Part shown: positions 1,171 to 55,462 of the stretch, piece after piece | Layout: the number at the start of each line of letters is the position of its first letter | Numbering within the stretch: position 1 is the first letter of the stretch | Assembly: GCA_902781465.1 (NCBI GenBank) | Contig: CACZJK010000001.1 | Location: forward strand, 60,243-124,242 | Direction of reading: 5' to 3' | Length of the DNA stretch: 64,000 bases | From: an uncultured Pseudomonadota bacterium | GTDB taxonomy: Bacteria > Pseudomonadota > Alphaproteobacteria > Rs-D84 | The notes under the pieces: model-generated | Told to the model about the DNA's origin: nothing | What the model saw: only the letters and a program-made list of their open reading frames with translations | Databases searched by the model: none | Program-made: the position numbers and the translations under genes

Positions 1171-1488
1171 ATGGCAAACAAGAAAAACCAAACCTCTATG
1201 GGTCAAATGATTCAGCGCTGTCATAAATGGCGTCAAAAAAGAAAACAATATATTGATTTGGCCCGTCAAACCAGTGATGAAGTCGAACGCGAAAGATTAT
1301 TACAAACCGCGGAACATTATGGCCGTATTGTTAATGAAGAACAGGTCAAAATTGATTCCCAACGTGATCCAAAAGATAAAACACCTATGCCGGAAGAAAT
1401 GGGTGAATCTGCTGAAAATTCTGATACAAAAGAATCAGATGACGATGACGAAATCGGATTCCCAGATTTCATTACAAATTTGAAATAA
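1171..1488 (+). CDS. DUF4167-family protein (alphaproteobacterial)
   Basis: 105 aa with a basic N-terminus, a LLQTAEHYGRIV motif resembling the DUF4167 AENYLQHAEHY.RI core, and an acidic C-terminal tail. An intrinsic terminator follows. Confidence 0.45.
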   Translation: MANKKNQTSMGQMIQRCHKWRQKRKQYIDLARQTSDEVERERLLQTAEHYGRIVNEEQVKIDSQRDPKDKTPMPEEMGESAENSDTKESDDDDEIGFPDFITNLK

Positions 1489-1492
1489 AACA

Positions 1493-1516
1493 CACCGCCC
1501 ATTTGGGCGGTTTTTT
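1493..1516 (+). terminator. rho-independent terminator
   Basis: CACCGCCCAUUUGGGCGG hairpin followed by a U6 tract. Confidence 0.6.
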
Positions 1517-2087
1517 ATTTTTCTTTTCCTATTTTTAATAAACCAAACAAATTCGTTTTAATTTTTGGTTGTCCATTAATATATTTTGTTATTTCTTCTT
1601 CTGTTTTTTTAATTGTTTGATACAAATAATCAGACATTGTGTCACATATTGATGCAATTAATTCTGATATTTTTTTTGTTTTTGCAGTGATATTCAAAGC
1701 AGCTTCTAATCCGAATATTCTTGCTTCCTCAGAACTTTTTGAATAATTTGCCATATCGCTTATAAATTTTAGCGATCTGCCCATAAAATATATTTCATCA
1801 GATACACTTGCAGGATTTTTACCGTTCAGACCAGACCAAAACATCAAATCGCTGATTATTGTTTTTGACAGACCTGTTTTTTTTAATAATTCTTCTGAAC
1901 CAGGTTTTGTTAAAAAAACATTCAATTTTCCAACAACCATGAATAAATAATCATAGTAATCCTTGAATGCCACATTAACAGTACCCGAACTGGCATGTTT
2001 TGGTTTTTGTATTTTTGATATTTCGTCTTTAAATTCTTGTAAATCTGCCAAAGATGCCAATTTAACTTTTGATTTATCAAATAACAT
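1515..2087 (-). CDS. hypothetical protein
   Basis: 190-aa ORF with plausible coding bias. It has a weak resemblance to a cNMP-binding fold, which I cannot confirm. Confidence 0.35.
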   Translation of the reverse strand: MLFDKSKVKLASLADLQEFKDEISKIQKPKHASSGTVNVAFKDYYDYLFMVVGKLNVFLTKPGSEELLKKTGLSKTIISDLMFWSGLNGKNPASVSDEIYFMGRSLKFISDMANYSKSSEEARIFGLEAALNITAKTKKISELIASICDTMSDYLYQTIKKTEEEITKYINGQPKIKTNLFGLLKIGKEK

Positions 2088-3424: not shown

Positions 3425-3592
3425 AATTAAACCGCCATAAAGCAAGCGGTTGGAGGCTCAAAACAATTCTAGTGGAAATTGCGTGCTTATTCGATATATT
3501 CGCAACCCTCCAACCATAGTTGGAGATGTTTATCGTCATCTAGACGCCACTAAAATGGGTTTTGAGTCCCAATCAGCAAAACTCTTGCTGAT
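3425..3592 (-). ncRNA. R1 structured leader RNA, copy 5 (upstream of family D gene)
   Basis: Reverse complement contains a -10 TATAAT box, hairpin AUCAGCAA-GAGU-UUGCUGAU and the long-range helix CUCAAAAC/GUUUUGAG. Hairpin 2 is CGUC-uaga-GACG and hairpin 3 is CUCCAAC-UAU-GGUUGGAGGG. It ends with CCUCCAACCGC, an AACCGC/GCGGUU terminator with a U-tract, and then the SD and ATG at 3388. Confidence 0.7.
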
Positions 3593-3711
3593 ACCGTTTA
3601 TTATACCATATTTCCCAAATAAAAAAAGTAAAAAAATATGCGTATTTTTCCAAAGAAGTTTTTATTGAAATCGTGTAATTATTTGCTATGCTTTCCGTCA
3701 AAGGAAGCATT

Positions 3712-7193: not shown

Positions 7194-7227
7194 GTTGTAT
7201 AAAATAACAGTTTCAGATAAAATAATT

Positions 7228-7410
7228 TTGTCAGCAAGAGTTTTGCTGATGAGGCTTGAGAACCTGTGATAAAGTGGCGTCTAGAAAAAGCGGACGTAAA
7301 ATGCTCCAACCTATGGTTGGAGGGCTGCGAATATATGGAATAAGCAGCGCAATTTCCACTTTGAATTGTTCTCAACCTCCAACCGCCTTTCTTTTAAGTG
7401 CGGTTTTAAT
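7228..7410 (+). ncRNA. R1 structured leader RNA, copy 1 (upstream of family C gene)
   Basis: A -10 box GATAAAAT sits at 7216-7223. Hairpin UCAGCAA-GAGU-UUGCUGA is followed by long-range helix UUGAGAAC/GUUCUCAA. Hairpin 2 is CGUC..GACG, then CUCCAACC-UAU-GGUUGGAGGG, hairpin CUGCG..CGCAG, CCUCCAACCGCC and a terminator. Confidence 0.7.
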
Positions 7411-23266: not shown

Positions 23267-23310
23267 GGTTCTCCCCCCGTGGGGGAGTGCGGCGCAGCCG
23301 GAGGGGGGTA
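23267..23310 (+). repeat. GC-rich palindromic repeat (second copy of the 7447-7491 repeat)
   Basis: GGTTCTCCCCCCGTGGGGGAGTGCGGCGCAGCCGGAGGGGGG. An additional palindrome TCTCCCCCACATTGGGGGAGA lies at 23380-23400. Confidence 0.7.
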
Positions 23311-23402
23311 TTCTGGTTTATTTGTTATACCGAACGACTGGGACAATTGTTTTTTCAACCCCCTCACCACTTCGTGGTCCTCTCCCCCACATTGGGGGAG
23401 AA

Positions 23403-23873: not shown

Positions 23874-24066
23874 ATATATCTCCTTATTCCAGAGGGCCTA
23901 ATTCCCCTCCATGGGAGGGGTGGATTGCGTCAGCAAGACAGGGAGGGGGCCGATTATATTTATATTAAATATTTTTATTTGACCCCTCCCCGCCGTTCCG
24001 GCCCTCCCCTCCGGCGGAGGGGAATCCGCAGGATGCGCCAGAGCGACGGCGCATGGCGAATTTTAT
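23874..24066 (-). repeat. GC-rich quasi-palindromic spacer between the family B and C genes (CCCCTCCATGGGAGGGG, CCCCTCCGGCGGAGGGG)
   Basis: Homologous to 8212-8400. Confidence 0.6.
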
Positions 24067-24855
24067 CTATTCCCCTGAACCGACTATTGGTCCGGCTATA
24101 AAATCACCTGTACCTTGGTTATAATAAAATTTACCTTCTACTTTATCGAACATACATGGTGTGCCGTTGCCGTCAAGGACAGGGATAAAGTCACGGACGA
24201 GAATATCGTTGTCGTAGATTTTTACGTAATAAAATCTTTCACTACCACTAATTATTGGCGAACCGTCAGAGTTCGTTGCAAACAATGTTAAAGTATAATC
24301 ACATGTAAAAATTGCAGGGTTGCTTTGCATAGTAGATATTGTAAAACCATTTACTGTTACAGTTGCTATGTTTTTATTTTTATCAAATGTTATAATTTTA
24401 TTATAAAGGTCTAGTGTCGTATTTCCCCATGTTATTTGAGTATTATAATCACTTCTTAAATTGTCTATAGACACCGAGGGGTTTACACTTGCATCAAAAC
24501 TATTTTTTAATGGAGATGCACCAACAACAGTTCTTGCTCCGAATATCCAGCCACCATTTCTCAATATCATTACATTTGCCACTACTCTTGTATCTTGATT
24601 TGGATAATACCCCGTATCAATATACTGTGTTCCTGTGCTCTCCAGGTATTCGATTCGTTGGATTAGTAATTGTTCCCAACCGATAAAGTCATATCCGTAT
24701 TTGGTTGGTGGGGTTGGTAATATTATATCACCACCGGTGGTACAAGATGTTTGTATTGGTGTATTATCTTCAACATACCAATATTGATTAAAAGTTGCAC
24801 CGTAACACACAACACATATAAATAATGTGATTACAGATATTAAAAATTTTTTCAT
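24067..24855 (-). CDS. family C exported protein with GW (Listeria-Bacteroides-type) repeat
   Basis: ATG at 24855 is preceded by AAGGGGGAA. Signal peptide MKKFLISVITLFICVVCYG, and the protein carries ILPTPPTKYGYDFIGWE. Confidence 0.6.
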   Translation of the reverse strand: MKKFLISVITLFICVVCYGATFNQYWYVEDNTPIQTSCTTGGDIILPTPPTKYGYDFIGWEQLLIQRIEYLESTGTQYIDTGYYPNQDTRVVANVMILRNGGWIFGARTVVGASPLKNSFDASVNPSVSIDNLRSDYNTQITWGNTTLDLYNKIITFDKNKNIATVTVNGFTISTMQSNPAIFTCDYTLTLFATNSDGSPIISGSERFYYVKIYDNDILVRDFIPVLDGNGTPCMFDKVEGKFYYNQGTGDFIAGPIVGSGE

Positions 24856-24874
24856 AAAATTCCCCCTTTGCCAA

Positions 24875-25062
24875 AAAAAGACCGTCCAAAGGGCGGTCAG
24901 GGAGGTGGTAAAGATTAACAAAACGAAATCTATCTCCCCGACCATAATATCAGGGACACATGCGATGCAAAAAGCACCGAAAAAACATCAGATACGATGC
25001 TTTCGCATCGGTTTTGTTAAAGGCTTACCACAGCCCTGAACCCAATTCCCATTGGATTCAAA
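24875..25062 (-). ncRNA. R2 structured leader RNA, copy b (upstream of family C gene)
   Basis: -10 GATAGAAT in reverse complement at 25068-25076. Hairpins are CCAAU-GGGA-AUUGG and CGAUGC-GAAA-GCAUCG. An alternative terminator GCAUCG..CGGUGC plus U5 is possible. Second terminator is GACCG..CGGUC plus U7, about 20 nt before the ATG. Homologous to 43556-43762. Confidence 0.55.
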
Positions 25063-25133
25063 TACTATTCTATCATAACAACACAAAAAAACAACACCTG
25101 TTTTCACAGGTGCTGCATTGAATTATAAAAAAT

Positions 25134-29963: not shown

Positions 29964-30019
29964 ACCGGTCAACACCGGTTTTTTTATTGCAATAAATAAT
30001 TATTTTCTGATAAAATAAT

Positions 30020-30210
30020 TTTGTCGGCAAGTATTTTGTCGGTGGGGTGTAGCTACCTCTGAAATAAATCGGCGTCTGGGAAAAAGCGGACGTAAAATGC
30101 TCCAACTGATAAAAATTTGGTTGGAGGGTTGCAAAATATACTGAATATGCACACAATTTCCGATTTAAATTGTAGCTAACCTCCAACCGCCCGATTTTCT
30201 GGCGGTTTTG
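30020..30210 (+). ncRNA. R1 structured leader RNA, copy 2 (upstream of family A gene)
   Basis: Promoter TTGCAA-N17-ATAAAAT. Long-range helix GGGGU-UAGCUA/UAGCUA-ACCUC. Hairpin 2 is CGUC..GACG, then CUCCAAC..GGUUGGAGGG, CCUCCAACCGCC and terminator CCGCCCGAUUUUCUGGCGG plus U4. Confidence 0.7.
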
Positions 30211-30236
30211 TTTGTAAAAAAACAAAAGAGGATACA

Positions 30237-30713
30237 ATGACAAAAATTATAATGATAATCGCCGGATTAATAACAACAATTCCAACATATGCAACAACAA
30301 TGTGCGCCGCAAATGATACCGTTGCCATCGTATTAGATCCAAGTATTGAAAAAATTGATATGGGTGCAGACGCTACAAGCCAAACTTGGTGGGCACAATT
30401 ACCCTTCGGACGCGTCAGCGGAACCGCAGCACTTATAAATAAAAACTGCACACAAGGTCAAGCCACATCAGAATTAACCGACATTGATAATAATGGTGAT
30501 ACAAAACGTATTGTGGGCGGTGAAAAATACGGCAAAGTTTGTTGGTGTAAATTGATACATCCTGCCATGTCTAAATGGGTTTGCAATGTTTATTCAGGCT
30601 ATTATAACGATAATTTTGGTTTTGATAGAGGTTCTTTAGCACATTGTGTTGGAATGTGTGCGACACTATTCGGAAGTATAAACTCCGGTCTTTTTGGTTC
30701 GATTGAAAACTAA
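30237..30713 (+). CDS. family A small secreted Cys-rich protein (TYATTMCA family)
   Basis: Signal peptide. Conserved with the 36822 and 55109 ORFs (PTYATTMCA.NDTV..VLDPSI, WWAQ.PFGRVSGTAA, VGGEKYG.VCWCK). Confidence 0.6.
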   Translation: MTKIIMIIAGLITTIPTYATTMCAANDTVAIVLDPSIEKIDMGADATSQTWWAQLPFGRVSGTAALINKNCTQGQATSELTDIDNNGDTKRIVGGEKYGKVCWCKLIHPAMSKWVCNVYSGYYNDNFGFDRGSLAHCVGMCATLFGSINSGLFGSIEN

Positions 30714-36583: not shown

Positions 36584-36623
36584 TTTTCTCTTTTTTTAAT
36601 AAATAATGTTTGCTAGAATATAT

Positions 36624-36806
36624 CTGTCAGCAAGAGTTTTGCTGATGAGGCTTAGAAACCTGCTTCGATATGCGTCCACAAGAAGACGTTAATTCTCCAA
36701 TCAATAATTTGGTTGGAGGGCTGTGATATACATAAATAAACGGCGCAATCTCATATCGAATTGTTTCTAACCTCCAACCGCCCGATTTTCTGGCGGTATT
36801 TTTTCG
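36624..36806 (+). ncRNA. R1 structured leader RNA, copy 3 (upstream of family A gene)
   Basis: -10 TAGAAT. Hairpin UCAGCAA-GAGU-UUGCUGA is followed by long-range helix UUAGAAAC/GUUUCUAA. Hairpin 2 is CGUC-cacaagaa-GACG, then CUCCAA..GGUUGGAGGG, CCUCCAACCGCC and terminator CCGCCCGAUUUUCUGGCGG plus U. Confidence 0.7.
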
Positions 36807-36821
36807 AAATGGAGGAAACAA

Positions 36822-37292
36822 ATGAAACGATTTTTTATAATATCAGCATTAACAATAATAATGCCAACATACGCAACAACAATGTGCGCCCAAAATGACA
36901 CAGTCGCAGTTATATTAGATCCATCAATAATTGCAACAAGTTATGGTTCTGATGCAACAACTGGAACATGGTGGGCGCAATTCCCGTTTGGTCGAGTTAG
37001 TGGTACTGCCGCTATGCTAAATAAATCATGTACCCAAGGTCAAGCAATATCACAATTAACCGATACAAATAACGGTGAAACTAAATTGGTTGTTGGGGGT
37101 GAAAAATACGGTCGTGTTTGTTGGTGTAAAATAACACACCCGACAACATCTAAATGGGTGTGTAATATAACCGCAATTAACTATGGTGGCAGTGATTTCA
37201 CCGGATGTGTAAATTTGTGCGGACGGTTTTTGACAAACACCTATCACAATAGTGCATTAGAATCAGGTTTATTTGGTTCAATTTCAAATTAA
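36822..37292 (+). CDS. family A small secreted Cys-rich protein
   Basis: Paralog of 30237-30713. SD GGAGG is 8 nt upstream. Confidence 0.6.
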   Translation: MKRFFIISALTIIMPTYATTMCAQNDTVAVILDPSIIATSYGSDATTGTWWAQFPFGRVSGTAAMLNKSCTQGQAISQLTDTNNGETKLVVGGEKYGRVCWCKITHPTTSKWVCNITAINYGGSDFTGCVNLCGRFLTNTYHNSALESGLFGSISN

Positions 37293-43516: not shown

Positions 43517-43555
43517 AGAAATACTTGCACGCCTATTTATTTTTGATAGAATGGT

Positions 43556-43762
43556 TATGAATCCAATGGGAATTGGGTTTGGGGCTGTGATAAGCCCAAT
43601 CAGGTCGGTGCGAAAGCATCGTTATATTGGTGTTTCGGTGTTTTTTTTGCATCGTCAACATCCCTGACTAACAAGGTCGGGGAGCCGTCATACCGTAAGG
43701 TGACGGAATCATAACCTGATTGATTTATCAACTCCCCGACCGCCTTTTCATTGGCGGTTTTT
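43556..43762 (+). ncRNA. R2 structured leader RNA, copy a (promoter TTGCAC-N16-TAGAAT at 43525-43552)
   Basis: Homologous to the reverse complement of 24875-25062. Hairpins are CCAAU-GGGA-AUUGG, GGGC..GCCC and CGGUGC-GAAA-GCAUCG. An alternative stem GCAUCG..CGGUGU plus U8 is possible. A long helix GGUCGGGGAG/CUCCCCGACC encloses CCGUCA..UGACGG. Terminator is ACCGCC..GGCGGU plus U5. Confidence 0.55.
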
Positions 43763-43780
43763 ATAAAATGGAGTTTTCCT

Positions 43781-44068
43781 ATGCCACAAACTAAACAAAT
43801 TAACAAAATCGACCAAACTGAAAGATTAATAGAAGCGGTTGAAAACCTGTCTTTTTCAATCGACAATTTGAAAGACAATAGTTCGCGTGATTATTCACCA
43901 TATTTAACAAATATTTTTATATCTTTGAAAATATTGGATAAAATTCAACACGAATTACACATATTAAATAAAACATTTATTATGTCTGCTCTGCTTTTAA
44001 GTGCAACAAAAAATCCAGAAAAAACATTAAATGAATATCACAAAATTATTGACCAATATTTAAATTAA
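43781..44068 (+). CDS. small hypothetical protein
   Basis: ATG at 43781 is preceded by GGAG. 95 aa with no signal peptide, followed by a terminator. Confidence 0.4.
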   Translation: MPQTKQINKIDQTERLIEAVENLSFSIDNLKDNSSRDYSPYLTNIFISLKILDKIQHELHILNKTFIMSALLLSATKNPEKTLNEYHKIIDQYLN

Positions 44069-54769: not shown

Positions 54770-54913
54770 CGAAAAATTGTTAACCCGCACAATAAAAGTG
54801 CGGGTTTAAAATTTTTCAGTGTCGCCATGTAATGAACATAGTGAATACAAGCAGACTTTTTTATTTTAATAACTTTTCCCTTTTTTTCATAAACAATCTC
54901 TGATAAAATATTT

Positions 54914-55092
54914 TTGTCAGAAAGAATTTTTCTGATGAGGCGTAAGAACCTGTTAATGTATTGTGTCCGCGGGGACAAAAAACACCTCCAATCGTCTTTT
55001 GGTTGGAGGGTTGCGATATATATGAATAAGCACGCTATTTTCAATACATTATAGTTCTTAACCTCCAACCGCCTTTTATATCGGCGGTTTTT
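54914..55092 (+). ncRNA. R1 structured leader RNA, copy 4 (upstream of family A gene)
   Basis: -10 GATAAAAT. Hairpin UCAGAAA-GAAU-UUUCUGA is compensatory relative to the other copies. Long-range helix is GUAAGAAC/GUUCUUAA. Hairpin 2 is GUCC-gcgg-GGAC (also compensatory), then CCUCCAA..GGUUGGAGGG, CCUCCAACCGCC and terminator CCGCCUUUUAUAUCGGCGG plus U5. Confidence 0.7.
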
Positions 55093-55108
55093 AAAAACGG
55101 AGGAAAAG

Positions 55109-55462
55109 ATGAAAAAAATATTTTTAATAATTTCTTTATTGGCAACCATACCAACATACGCAACAACAATGTGCGCCCAAAATGATACAGTTGTAGTGGT
55201 ATTAGATCCGACAATATCCGGAGACCGCGGTTATAACTCAAGCAATGGTAATTGGAGTTTTATAACAAAATCATATGCAATATATGGCGAAACTAAAATA
55301 GAAAACAGCAAATGTTTTTACAGAATAACCCACCCATTTATAATTCCATGGAGATTCCATACAAATACAACTAGCGTAGGCGGGTGTGCCGACAGTGTAG
55401 CTGTTGCATTTGGCAATGGGATAGAATTAAGGAGGTCGATTTTTTCATCAATCACTGATTAA
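55109..55462 (+). CDS. family A small secreted Cys-rich protein (diverged, 117 aa)
   Basis: MKKIFLIISLLATIPTYATTMCAQNDTVVVVLDP is shared with the 30237 and 36822 ORFs. SD GGAGG present. Confidence 0.55.
   Translation: MKKIFLIISLLATIPTYATTMCAQNDTVVVVLDPTISGDRGYNSSNGNWSFITKSYAIYGETKIENSKCFYRITHPFIIPWRFHTNTTSVGGCADSVAVAFGNGIELRRSIFSSITD

Follow-up and report, generated by a model that had tools for sequence, protein, structure and literature searches.

A multi-copy leader RNA with two predicted pseudoknots and a putative transcriptional switch in gut Alphaproteobacteria of the order Rs-D84

Our analysis indicates that the two repeated leaders found in the 64,000-nt stretch of DNA examined here (the window, from an uncultured alphaproteobacterium of the lineage Rs-D84) are copies of a folded RNA of roughly 210 bases, which sits between a promoter and a gene, is not represented in the RNA family database, and most likely decides whether transcription stops or reads through into the gene. 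The RNA occurs in many copies in small-genome gut bacteria, in front of surface, sugar-modifying and DNA-defence genes. Five more leaders of a sister subfamily lie in the window, while the two repeats belong to the subfamily that we call R2.

Homology, copy number and genomic setting of the leaders

The first-pass annotation had reported that the two copies are homologous over about 150 nt, and this observation is confirmed. Copy A (43553-43767, plus strand) and copy B (25066-24867, minus strand) are in fact homologous over their whole length of about 205-215 nt: nhmmer aligns 43552-43767 and 25069-24867 end to end, and the pairwise alignment has a mean column identity of 80%. The 21-mer GAATCCAATGGGAATTGGGTT occurs exactly twice in the window, whereas 0.01 occurrences are expected. 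All of the sequence blocks listed by that annotation are present, namely the TGATAGAAT extended -10, the GGGA hairpin, GGGCUGUG(A/G)UAAGCC, CG(A/G)UGC-GAAA-GCAUCG, UUUCGGUG plus U-run, UCCCUGA, GGUCGGGGAG...CUCCC(C/U)GACC, and a GC stem plus U tract. Both copies fold far better than shuffled sequences (z = -7.15 and -7.71), and the genes downstream of them are as had been described.

The two copies are not an isolated pair. A scan of species-representative genomes gave at least 89 further copies in gut and rumen Alphaproteobacteria (Candidatus Enterousia, order Rs-D84, genomes under about 1 Mb), all with the same order of parts. The annotation had named the existence of only two copies without covariation as an outcome that would refute it, and this is clearly not the case. 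Within the window, a structural scan for strands A, B and C plus pseudoknot and a filter-free covariance-model search found nothing beyond the seven leaders; a weak hit at 23300-23368 is not a leader.

Each copy has its own sigma-70 promoter, followed by the structured RNA, an intrinsic terminator, an SD and a start codon. Of the 72 family members analysed (1 could not be scored), 68 have a -10 hexamer with at least 4/6 matches, and the hexamer ends 6-7 nt before the first hairpin, H1, in 52 of the 69 members with a scorable hexamer, while sequence further upstream is not conserved. The start codon with its SD lies a median of about 14 nt after the terminator and always on the same strand. The 72 downstream proteins scanned are unrelated to each other: they include DNA methylases, restriction subunits, glycosyltransferases, outer-membrane proteins and Listeria-Bacteroides repeat proteins, and many have no Pfam match. 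The genes share no pathway that would point to a metabolite.

Table 1. Positions of the leader elements and adjoining genes in the window; RNA elements are predicted from sequence.
Position	Strand	Element	Remarks
43525-43552	+	Copy A promoter	-35 TTGCAC (43525-43530), 16-nt spacer, extended -10 TGaTAGAAT (43544-43552)
43559-43580	+	Copy A H1	9-bp hairpin with GGGA (GNRA) loop; in the minimum free energy structure; 6 of the 8 H1 pairs in the family alignment show changes on both sides
43582-43597	+	Copy A H2	GGGCU-GUGAUA-AGCCC; loop and 3' flank UGAUAA (43588-43593) form the 5' strand of PK2
43597-43605	+	Copy A PK1 5' strand	(C)AAUCAGGU, linker between H2 and H3; pairs over 9 bp with 43714-43722
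43606-43621	+	Copy A H3	CGGUGC-GAAA-GCAUCG, sequence almost invariant across the family; 100% of cells paired, 3 of 6 pairs never vary
43636-43654	+	Copy A H4	CGGUG-U8-GCAUCG; the U-run (43641-43648) is the loop
43661-43668	+	Copy A strand A	UCCCUGAC; decoy that pairs with B and mimics C
43675-43684	+	Copy A strand B	GGUCGGGGAG; 5' strand of P1, SD-like
43685-43706	+	Copy A P2 (reduced)	CCGUCA-UACCGUAAGG-UGACGG; typical members carry UAUAAAAYA-GGG-GNRA-CCC-GAAAG
43707-43725	+	Copy A P3	AAUCA...UGAUU; loop ACCUGAUU (43714-43721) is the 3' strand of PK1
43725-43731	+	Copy A J3/1	UUAUCA (43725-43730) is the 3' strand of PK2
43732-43741	+	Copy A strand C	CUCCCCGACC; 3' strand of P1, anti-SD-like; last 4 nt, GACC, also begin the terminator stem
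43738-43762	+	Copy A intrinsic terminator	GACCGCC-UUUUCAUU-GGCGGUU followed by U's (U tract 43760-43763)
43770-44068	+	SD and gene after copy A	SD GGAG (43770-43773); 95-aa ORF (43781-44068) with no Pfam match; three homologues in other genomes all carry the same leader
25067-25075	-	Copy B extended -10	TGATAGAAT
24995-25059	-	Copy B 5' domain	H1 25059-25038; H2 25036-25021; PK2 5' strand UGGUAA 25030-25025; PK1 5' strand UUAACAAAAC 25020-25011; H3 25010-24995
24963-24979	-	Copy B H4	CGGUGC-U5-GCAUCG
24873-24956	-	Copy B switch region	A UCCCUGAU 24956-24949; B GGUCGGGGAG 24943-24934; single inner hairpin (no P2) whose loop GUUUUGUUAA 24924-24915 is the PK1 3' strand; PK2 3' strand UUACCA 24911-24906; C CUCCCUGACC 24904-24895; terminator GACCG...CGGUC plus U7 24898-24873 (U tract 24879-24873)
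24067-24855	-	Gene after copy B	262-aa secreted protein; sub-threshold match to the Listeria-Bacteroides repeat (PF09479, 22.4 bits, E = 1.3e-4, curated cut-off 27)
3429-3603	-	Sister-subfamily leader	P1 GGUUGGAGG/CCUCCAACC, A UCUCCAACU; before a 98-aa ORF with a hydrophobic N-terminus
7215-7408	+	Sister-subfamily leader	
30007-30212	+	Sister-subfamily leader	before ORF 30237-30713
36611-36803	+	Sister-subfamily leader	before ORF 36822-37292
54900-55093	+	Sister-subfamily leader	before ORF 55109-55462

Covariation, pseudoknots and the proposed switch

The consensus structure was evaluated on 72 sequences: 95.2% of cells are paired compared to 87.7% in shuffles, 29 pairs are changed on both sides compared to 16.5 (29-30 over the two evaluations made), and the covariation score is 0.276 compared to 0.147. 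None of 500 shuffles reaches the observed values, and slid controls give at most 49% paired. Covariation supports H1, H2, P2 and P2b strongly and H4, P1 and the terminator partly. It also supports two long-range pseudoknots: PK1 pairs the H2-H3 linker with the loop of P3 (this family-wide pairing was found by RNAalifold), and PK2 pairs the H2 loop with J3/1. A cognate Watson-Crick run of at least 6 bp occurs in 94% of copies for PK1 and in 79% for PK2, against 1.7% and 2.2% of non-cognate pairs, and both pseudoknots are present with different sequences in all 7 window leaders.

P1 is the pairing of strand B (GGUCGGGGAG) with strand C (CUCCCCGACC), and its alignment pair 168-247 is AU 49 / GU 17 / UA 4. 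The terminator stem columns 252-255 are the same columns as the 3' end of P1, with covariation in both helices, and the terminator pair 253-280 is AU 56 / GU 11 / GC 5. A simple terminator scan did not call the 3' terminators of the two window copies, because of loop length and U count. Strand A, which lies a few bases upstream of B, can pair with B in place of C. Strands A, B and C change together in four classes: UCCCUGAC / GGUCGGGGA / UCCCCGACC, UCCUUGAC / GGUCGAGGA / UCCUCGACC, GUCCCGACC / GGUCGGGAU / UCCCGACC, and CUCCAAYC / GGUUGGAGG / CCUCCAACC. However, within R2 itself the three strands are almost invariant, so the support for A:B comes from a few variant classes.

The best explanation, to which we assign a probability of roughly 0.6, is that R2 is one subfamily of a large family of cis-acting 5' leader RNAs that gate accessory genes by transcription attenuation. 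In this view the RNA folds into hairpins H1, H2 and H3 (plus H4 in R2) and then into a three-way junction P1-P2-P3, which the two copy-specific pseudoknots clamp to the 5' domain. In the OFF state the A:B hairpin would form first, C would remain free, the terminator would form and transcription would stop; C is anti-SD-like and could also mask the SD. In the ON state C would displace A, P1 would close the pseudoknot-braced junction, the terminator would lose 4 of its roughly 7 pairs and RNA polymerase would read into the gene. The analysis itself demonstrates the helices, both pseudoknots, the joint variation of A, B and C, the overlap of P1 with the terminator, the promoters and the fixed position before ORFs, whereas it is inferred that the two states are actually populated and that they control termination, and the transcript starts, the 3' ends and read-through are likewise inferred. 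The ON and OFF secondary structures are nearly isoenergetic (OFF minus ON is +3.0 kcal/mol, sd 3.0, in calculations that ignore the pseudoknots and tertiary contacts). As P1 is slightly favoured, the leader could simply be constitutively ON or partly leaky. Candidates for what tips the balance are a small ligand, a protein, or the kinetics of transcription.

The interpretation given in the first-pass annotation is thus only partly supported. It rightly saw a structured leader family starting at a promoter, and the 3' module with UCCCUGA, GGUCGGGGAG and CUCCCCGACC and a terminator just before the start codon is real and is the regulatory core. It was also right that no known class fits and that a resemblance to SRP RNA should be dismissed. 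It did not recognize either pseudoknot, the overlap of P1 with the terminator, the role of UCCCUGA as a decoy for GGUCGGGG, the kinship with the other leader family in the window, or the resemblance to sRNA-Xcc1.

Its proposal of an internal, mutually exclusive terminator, in which GCAUCG of the GAAA hairpin re-pairs with CGGUG before the U-run and gives a roughly 100-nt product in addition to the distal terminator, is not supported. The pairing is possible in all copies, because H3 and H4 have near-identical stems; window copy A has U8, and sRNA-Xcc1-like relatives in Aeromonas and Nitratidesulfovibrio have a hairpin plus U7 at the equivalent place. However, CGGUG-Un-GCAYCG is a conserved hairpin, H4, with 100% of cells paired and two pairs showing compensatory change, and the U-run is its loop. 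The run is 4-5 U in 54 of 72 copies, is often interrupted, and reaches U8 only in window copy A. The re-paired hairpin averages -4.6 kcal/mol against -7.5 for H3, which forms first, and in the most stable form the U-run pairs with GAAA inside one long helix at -17.6 to -22.7 kcal/mol. Covariation does not discriminate between H3 and H4 as two hairpins and their merger into one long helix, because the two stems are almost identical in sequence. The sister subfamily has no H4 or U-run at all. Therefore, we consider this early terminator unlikely.

Alternative readings of the element

One would argue that the element is a stand-alone, trans-acting small RNA, as sRNA-Xcc1 is annotated, with the downstream gene a mere neighbour expressed by leakage. 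Promoter and terminator do delimit a discrete RNA, the closest Rfam family is an sRNA seen as a roughly 100-nt band in Xanthomonas (PMC2996969), and seven expressed homologues are reported in Xylella (PMC12189769). However, every copy with sequence available lies on the same strand directly upstream of an ORF, and the short distance from U tract to start codon leaves no room for another promoter. Additionally, the decoy strand A and the P1-terminator overlap have no role in a plain sRNA, the invariant parts show no obvious target-pairing seed, and the variable parts pair within the same molecule. Thus this reading is unlikely. It is still less likely that the leaders follow an antisense logic as in type I toxin-antitoxin systems, in which the 5' domain would be released as a short RNA and would pair in trans with the P3 loop and J3/1 of full-length leaders, the hypervariable pseudoknot sequences being the specificity code that keeps many paralogous pairs orthogonal. 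The pseudoknots are indeed copy-specific yet complementary, and relatives sit before symE toxin genes (bioRxiv 10.1101/2025.06.18.660453) and have a terminator-like hairpin plus U7 between the two domains. Nevertheless, no convincing internal terminator or internal promoter separates the domains in Rs-D84 leaders, so the pairing is most simply intramolecular, and most downstream genes are not toxin-like.

A constitutive 5' UTR module acting as insulator, mRNA stabiliser or processing site (RNase or self-cleavage) without conditional switching is similarly doubtful. The fold is elaborate, P1 is slightly favoured, and the mapped 5' end of sRNA-Xcc1 lies exactly at the start of P1 (PMC2996969), which could reflect processing; but the conservation and co-variation of strand A and the GACC shared by P1 and the terminator are hard to explain without alternative states, and no known ribozyme family matches. 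The least likely reading is a mobile repeat (MITE, BOX or Correia-like) that happens to carry a promoter and terminator, with no selected RNA structure. The element is multi-copy, has about 70 nt of near-invariant sequence and is found next to accessory genes, but this reading is contradicted by the extensive compensatory changes in six helices and two pseudoknots, by the copy-specific pseudoknot sequences and by the fixed orientation and spacing before ORFs. Conservation starts at the -10 element and ends at the U tract, and no terminal inverted repeats were noticed on viewing the alignment. An attC-like recombination site, prompted by the integron link of sRNA-Xcc1, was judged a poor fit, because each copy has its own promoter and terminator, and no R''/R' core sites were evident on inspection.

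Other candidates were examined and rejected. Copy A has a 36-codon frame from AUG 43557 to the UGA of UCCCUGA, but a leader peptide is not conserved: only 2 of 72 members have an ATG ORF ending at this UGA, and the ORF from the nearly invariant internal AUG varies from 1 to 54 codons, with stops at many columns. A mini-ORF after the SD-like GGAGG of the sister subfamily is also not conserved. As an internal promoter for the 3' domain, TTGCAC-N17-TATGGT is present in many R2 copies and TTTGCA-N16-TATTAT in copy B, but it is absent from copy A, from the family members L004, L005 and L006 and from others, so it is not a family feature, and the only conserved promoter lies about 120 nt upstream of P1. 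A hammerhead-like CUGAUGA/GAAA was dismissed since the order of elements is wrong, the CUGAUG is not conserved, and there is no Rfam hit.

Rs-D84/Enterousia bacteria are common in rumen and gut samples, are uncultured, and have genomes of about 0.75-1.0 Mb (PMC12306168). A single RNA architecture in front of their DNA methylases, restriction subunits, glycosyltransferases, outer-membrane and surface proteins points to an RNA-based regulon for exactly the genes that shape interactions with phages and hosts. For RNA biology the family offers a large, well-covarying orphan leader with at least 72 distinct sequences in hand, an unusual reciprocal loop-flank double pseudoknot and a built-in decoy strand, and it is a ready target for ligand or protein hunting and for structure determination. 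It could even be, although we regard this only as a tentative possibility, that we are dealing with a new class of RNA regulator serving as the main control device for contingency genes (restriction-modification, surface glycan enzymes, outer-membrane and surface proteins) in a whole order of genome-reduced gut symbionts. Several to many leaders per genome of under 1 Mb would then each be braced by a private pair of pseudoknots, and all would respond to one global signal, such as a second messenger, a dedicated antiterminator protein, or transcription speed. As part of the same tentative reading, the widespread sRNA-Xcc1 of integron cassettes, plasmids and phages would be the 3' half of this double-pseudoknot leader architecture rather than a free-standing sRNA.

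Comparison with known RNA systems

In transcriptional ON riboswitches, for example the adenine pbuE/ydhL type, a junction-type fold is likewise closed by a P1 helix whose 3' strand is shared with the 5' arm of an intrinsic terminator directly upstream of the regulated ORF, and some classes, such as c-di-GMP-I, have many copies per genome before varied genes. The leaders described here possess a structured domain supported by covariation and a closing helix that shares columns with the terminator stem, but the functionally diverse downstream genes suggest no ligand, there is an extra upstream decoy strand, long copy-specific pseudoknots tie a separate 5' domain to the junction, and the family is restricted to one lineage. 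Classical attenuators with three mutually exclusive helices (trp-type 1:2/2:3/3:4, or protein-mediated as in PyrR or BglG) share the chain of alternative pairings A:B, B:C and C:terminator; here there is no conserved leader peptide, and Rfam detects no known protein-binding motif such as RAT, ANTAR or the PyrR box. Specialised antitermination systems of accessory and surface-gene operons (RfaH/ops, UpxY, LoaP, EAR RNA) regulate the same kind of genes, namely surface glycan enzymes, outer-membrane and surface proteins, and horizontally acquired genes, through a common leader element. There is no match to EAR in Rfam, and those systems act processively through NusG paralogues or an RNA that modifies RNA polymerase, whereas here the conserved element carries its own terminator and alternative pairings.

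Rfam searches at gathering threshold on the window, and at E up to 10 on both copies and on a typical member (L046), gave no SRP, 6S, tmRNA, RNase P, T-box, c-di-GMP, EAR or ribozyme hit. Only sRNA-Xcc1 (RF02221) appeared, below its gathering threshold of 53 bits: 32.7 bits for copy A and 36.5 bits for L046, with no hit for copy B. The leaders and sRNA-Xcc1 share the three-way junction, with a GC-rich P1 of 9-10 bp, a P2 with an AUA(C/A)AAUA / GAA internal loop around a 3-bp GNRA-capped tip, a P3 hairpin, a J3/1 of about 6 nt and a pyrimidine-rich tail after P1, as seen in full-length structural alignments to the model, although copy A has a reduced P2 and copy B lacks it. Reciprocally, a covariance model built only from R2 3' domains finds four of four sRNA-Xcc1-like elements, in Neisseria, Nitratidesulfovibrio, Aeromonas and Pseudomonas records, at 26-41 bits over the full model. 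All four also have an upstream hairpin whose loop pairs with J3/1 and a following linker that pairs with the P3 loop, and in two of the four (Nitratidesulfovibrio, Pseudomonas) an annotated gene follows on the same strand. The Rfam model covers only the 3' domain (87 nt), and sRNA-Xcc1 is annotated as a trans-acting sRNA of 88 nt whose 5' end is at P1. In contrast, the leaders described here are about 210 nt long, start from a promoter 120 nt upstream of P1, have the decoy strand A and a true intrinsic terminator overlapping P1, and have expanded inside one bacterial order. Our findings suggest that sRNA-Xcc1, which seems to be only the 3' half of the same architecture, is truncated and probably mis-described as a family, which would change how hits to it in Xanthomonas, Xylella, Neisseria, Aeromonas and phage genomes are read.

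Extent and distribution of the leader family

The two segments of the R2 family, copy A on the forward strand and copy B on the reverse strand, are real and homologous, and the observation of the first-pass annotation is confirmed and much enlarged. Reading both strands and aligning them (80% mean column identity) showed every sequence block that had been listed in that annotation, and the 21-mer of the first hairpin occurs exactly twice in 64 kb against 0.01 expected. A profile search aligns the two copies from end to end, so the homology covers about 205-215 nt and not the 150 nt that had been proposed. Each strand also folds far more stably than dinucleotide shuffles (z = -7.15 and -7.71). 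Copy A precedes a 95-aa ORF without a Pfam match, while copy B precedes a secreted protein with a sub-threshold match to the Listeria-Bacteroides repeat (22.4 bits, cut-off 27).

The window comes from a rumen metagenome scaffold, and homologues of the 95-aa protein exist in other assemblies in quite different neighbourhoods. The three homologues that were looked up (P0002, P0008 and P0010) all carry the same leader upstream. We then ran one pattern scan of species-representative genomes using three conserved blocks, which gave at least 116 stretches. Of these 116, 89 are true copies by profile search, and the other 27 are chance matches in high-GC taxa. The true copies come from MAGs labelled Candidatus Enterousia, Alphaproteobacteria UBA/RGIG/RUG and "uncultured Rickettsiales", and their sources are cattle, sheep, goat, deer, horse, rabbit and human gut. 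Up to three copies per assembly were seen, which is a lower bound. Enterousia belongs to the uncultured order Rs-D84, whose genomes are about 0.75-1.0 Mb (PMC12306168). The alphaproteobacterial origin of these genomes is independently confirmed by a two-piece (permuted) alphaproteobacterial tmRNA gene, which scores 172.8 bits in a related MAG. Typical R2 leaders also sit on contigs binned into non-proteobacterial MAGs labelled Clostridia, Oscillospiraceae and Gastranaerophilales (L015, L066 and L086). Two of these three contigs are short (under 4 kb) and the third is 37.8 kb; mis-binned Rs-D84 contigs seem more likely than horizontal transfer. None of the papers on Enterousia, Rs-D84 and sRNA-Xcc1 that we opened describes such a leader.

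A sister subfamily, with P1 strands GGUUGGAGG/CCUCCAACC and a -10 element GATAAAAT or similar, occurs five times in the same window and is probably the family called R1 in the first-pass annotation. It has the same order of parts, including both pseudoknots with sequences private to each copy, but a single hairpin where R2 has H3 and H4. Together with the two R2 copies, seven such leaders lie in 64 kb. In related loci the extra density is lower, at a handful per about 730 kb beyond the seeds, and the number per genome is therefore uncertain. Three of the sister-subfamily leaders precede paralogous secreted proteins that share an N-terminal ...PTYATTMCA(Q/A)NDTV... motif; leader and gene have probably duplicated together. 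GC-rich palindromes of the type CUCCCCC-loop-GGGGGAG also recur in intergenic DNA of this AT-rich genome, and they may be another repeat or terminator-like element.

Coordinates of the leaders, their long-range pairings and associated features (window positions unless a handle of a retrieved sequence is given)
Feature	Position	Strand	Sequence or remark
R2 copy A, extent of profile alignment	43552-43767	+
R2 copy B, extent of profile alignment	25069-24867	-
Copy A PK1, two strands	43597-43605 with 43714-43722		CAAUCAGGU with ACCUGAUUG
Copy A PK2, two strands	43588-43593 with 43725-43730		UGAUAA with UUAUCA
Copy B PK1, two strands			UUAACAAAAC with GUUUUGUUAA
Copy B PK2, two strands			UGGUAA with UUACCA
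Copy A, first bases of the transcript with the 5' strand and loop of P3	43553-43560 with 43709-43716		GGUUAUGA with UCAUAACC
Sister-subfamily leader	3603-3429	-
Sister-subfamily leader	7215-7408	+
Sister-subfamily leader	30007-30212	+
Sister-subfamily leader	36611-36803	+
Sister-subfamily leader	54900-55093	+
ORF of paralogous secreted protein	30237-30713
ORF of paralogous secreted protein	36822-37292
ORF of paralogous secreted protein	55109-55462
GC-rich palindromes	23280-23400 and 24000-24050	-
GC-rich palindrome in L006	9935-9975
sRNA-Xcc1-like elements in Neisseria gonorrhoeae, Nitratidesulfovibrio vulgaris, Aeromonas caviae and Pseudomonas aeruginosa records	L125 560-800, L126 560-830, L127 270-520, L128 290-530
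tmRNA gene in a related MAG (L061)	1208-1549	-	two-piece (permuted)

Anatomy, covariation and pseudoknots

The anatomy of the family was derived from an alignment of 72 sequences. A -10 hexamer with at least 4/6 matches is present in 68 of 72 and ends 6-7 nt before the first hairpin in 52; 53 also have a -35 at 16-18 nt spacing, whereas sequence further upstream is not conserved. In the 5' domain, hairpin H1 has a GNRA loop and is followed by H2, a variable linker and H3, which reads CGGUGC-GAAA-GCAUCG and is almost invariant. Next come a conserved GAUGU and H4 (CGGUG-U4-6-GCACCG), then UUAUCA. The switch and junction region begins with strand A (UCCCUGAC), and after 6-8 nt in most copies comes strand B (GGUCGGGG(A/G)G). 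P2 follows, which consists of a stem, an internal loop UAUAAAAYA / GAAAG and a 3-bp tip with a GNRA loop. P3 is AAUCA-loop-UGAUU, and J3/1 is UUnnnAAC, followed by strand C (UCCCCGACC). The 3' end is formed by a terminator whose 5' arm begins with the GACC of C, and by a U tract, after which an SD and start codon lie a median of about 14 nt later on the same strand. The window copies are atypical: copy A has a shortened P2 and the longest U-run of all copies, and copy B has no P2.

On this alignment the proposed structure pairs 95.2% of cells against 87.7% in shuffles, and 29 pairs have changes on both sides against 16.5. No shuffle of 500 reaches the observed values, and slid controls pair at most 49%. 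H1, H2, P2 and the P2 tip are well supported, and H4 has two compensatory pairs. RNAalifold also revealed a long-range pairing (PK1) between the H2-H3 linker and the P3 loop; for example, columns 66-226 read UA 28, AU 19, CG 6, GC 6. A structural scan then exposed a second long-range pairing (PK2) between the H2 loop and J3/1. We tested both pairings without relying on the alignment, by measuring the longest Watson-Crick run. A run of at least 6 bp was found for PK1 in 94% of cognate copies against 1.7% of non-cognate pairs, and for PK2 in 79% against 2.2%. The pairings of copies A and B show that the loop of each of two hairpins pairs with the 3' flank of the other. This is a reciprocal double pseudoknot, with sequences private to each copy. 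In copy A the first bases of the transcript are also complementary over 8 bp to the 5' strand and loop of P3, overlapping the PK1 3' strand, but this may be chance.

Proposed switch and downstream genes

Strand B can pair with C to form P1, closing the junction, or with A. Within R2, P1 shows AU 49 / GU 17 / UA 4 at one pair. Columns 252-255 (GACC or GGCC) belong both to P1 and to the terminator stem, where pair 253-280 is AU 56 / GU 11 / GC 5. Four sequence classes of the triple A / B / C exist, in which the three strands change together: UCCCUGAC / GGUCGGGGA / UCCCCGACC, UCCUUGAC / GGUCGAGGA / UCCUCGACC, GUCCCGACC / GGUCGGGAU / UCCCGACC and CUCCAAYC / GGUUGGAGG / CCUCCAACC. This three-way co-variation is the main argument that both A:B and B:C are selected, which means two states. 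The two secondary structures are nearly isoenergetic (OFF minus ON is +3.0 kcal/mol with sd 3.0), and A:B would form first during transcription. B is SD-like, and A and C are anti-SD-like, so C might also mask the real SD, although this last point is inference. The best explanation is a terminator/antiterminator switch built on a double-pseudoknotted three-way junction, with an upstream decoy strand. The structure itself is much more certain than its proposed function; that it works as a switch, tipped by an unidentified trigger, is inferred with a confidence of about 0.6.

The 72 downstream proteins that were scanned are unrelated to each other (5% mean column identity). Pfam finds among them N6/N4, N6 (HsdM), C5 and Eco57I DNA methylases, a type III restriction subunit, glycosyltransferase families 8 and 2, an acyltransferase-3 and RgpF, outer-membrane beta-barrels and Listeria-Bacteroides repeat proteins, as well as a PLD nuclease and a superinfection-immunity protein. 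Many of the others have no Pfam match and begin with signal-peptide- or lipoprotein-like N-termini. These are accessory, surface and defence genes, and they do not point to a metabolite.

The first-pass annotation had proposed that GCAUCG of the GAAA hairpin can re-pair with the downstream CGGUG to form an internal terminator. Such pairing is possible, but the comparative data argue against a terminator there. H4 is a conserved hairpin and the U-run is its loop; the run is 4 U in 28 copies, 5 in 26, 6 in 11, and 8 only in window copy A. The re-paired hairpin averages -4.6 kcal/mol against -7.5 for H3, which forms first. The most stable form is one long helix in which the U-run pairs with GAAA, at -17.6, -19.7 and -22.7 kcal/mol in the three sequences folded, although two hairpins and one helix cannot be told apart, because the stems of H3 and H4 are nearly identical. 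Thus the earlier interpretation is supported in part: reading the element as a structured regulatory leader is right, but the specific early-terminator mechanism is not supported.

Relationship to sRNA-Xcc1

No Rfam family reaches its threshold. The best match is sRNA-Xcc1, on the P1-P2-P3 domain only, which scores 32.7 bits for copy A and 36.5 for a typical member against a gathering score of 53. The alignment is full-length and shares the AUAcAAUA / GAA loop around a GNRA-capped tip. We also ran the reciprocal test: a covariance model built only from R2 3' domains finds, at 26-41 bits, four sRNA-Xcc1-like elements that had been retrieved by BLAST of the Rfam consensus from Neisseria, Nitratidesulfovibrio, Aeromonas and Pseudomonas records. 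All four also have an upstream hairpin whose loop is complementary to J3/1, and a following linker complementary to the P3 loop. For example, in Nitratidesulfovibrio these are CUUGAAC with GUUCAAG and CACAAAGC with GCUUUGUG, and in Aeromonas UCGAAA with UUUCGA and UGAACAC with GUGUUCA. At least two of the elements (Nitratidesulfovibrio and Aeromonas) have a hairpin plus U7 between the two halves, and the Pseudomonas element has a U6 run there. In two of the four an annotated gene follows on the same strand: a BRO-family gene follows in the Pseudomonas record and a hypothetical gene in the Nitratidesulfovibrio plasmid. In Aeromonas an unannotated ATG after a GGAG follows the element.

The literature places sRNA-Xcc1 upstream of symE in Xanthomonas integron cassettes (bioRxiv 10.1101/2025.06.18.660453), upstream of an ORF6N gene in APSE phage, and in seven copies in Xylella (PMC12189769). 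The Rfam model seems to cover only half of the element. Although four loci are too few to prove this, our reading is that the Rfam family is the 3' half of the same architecture, and that R2 and R1 are a lineage-specific elaboration with decoy strand and terminator.
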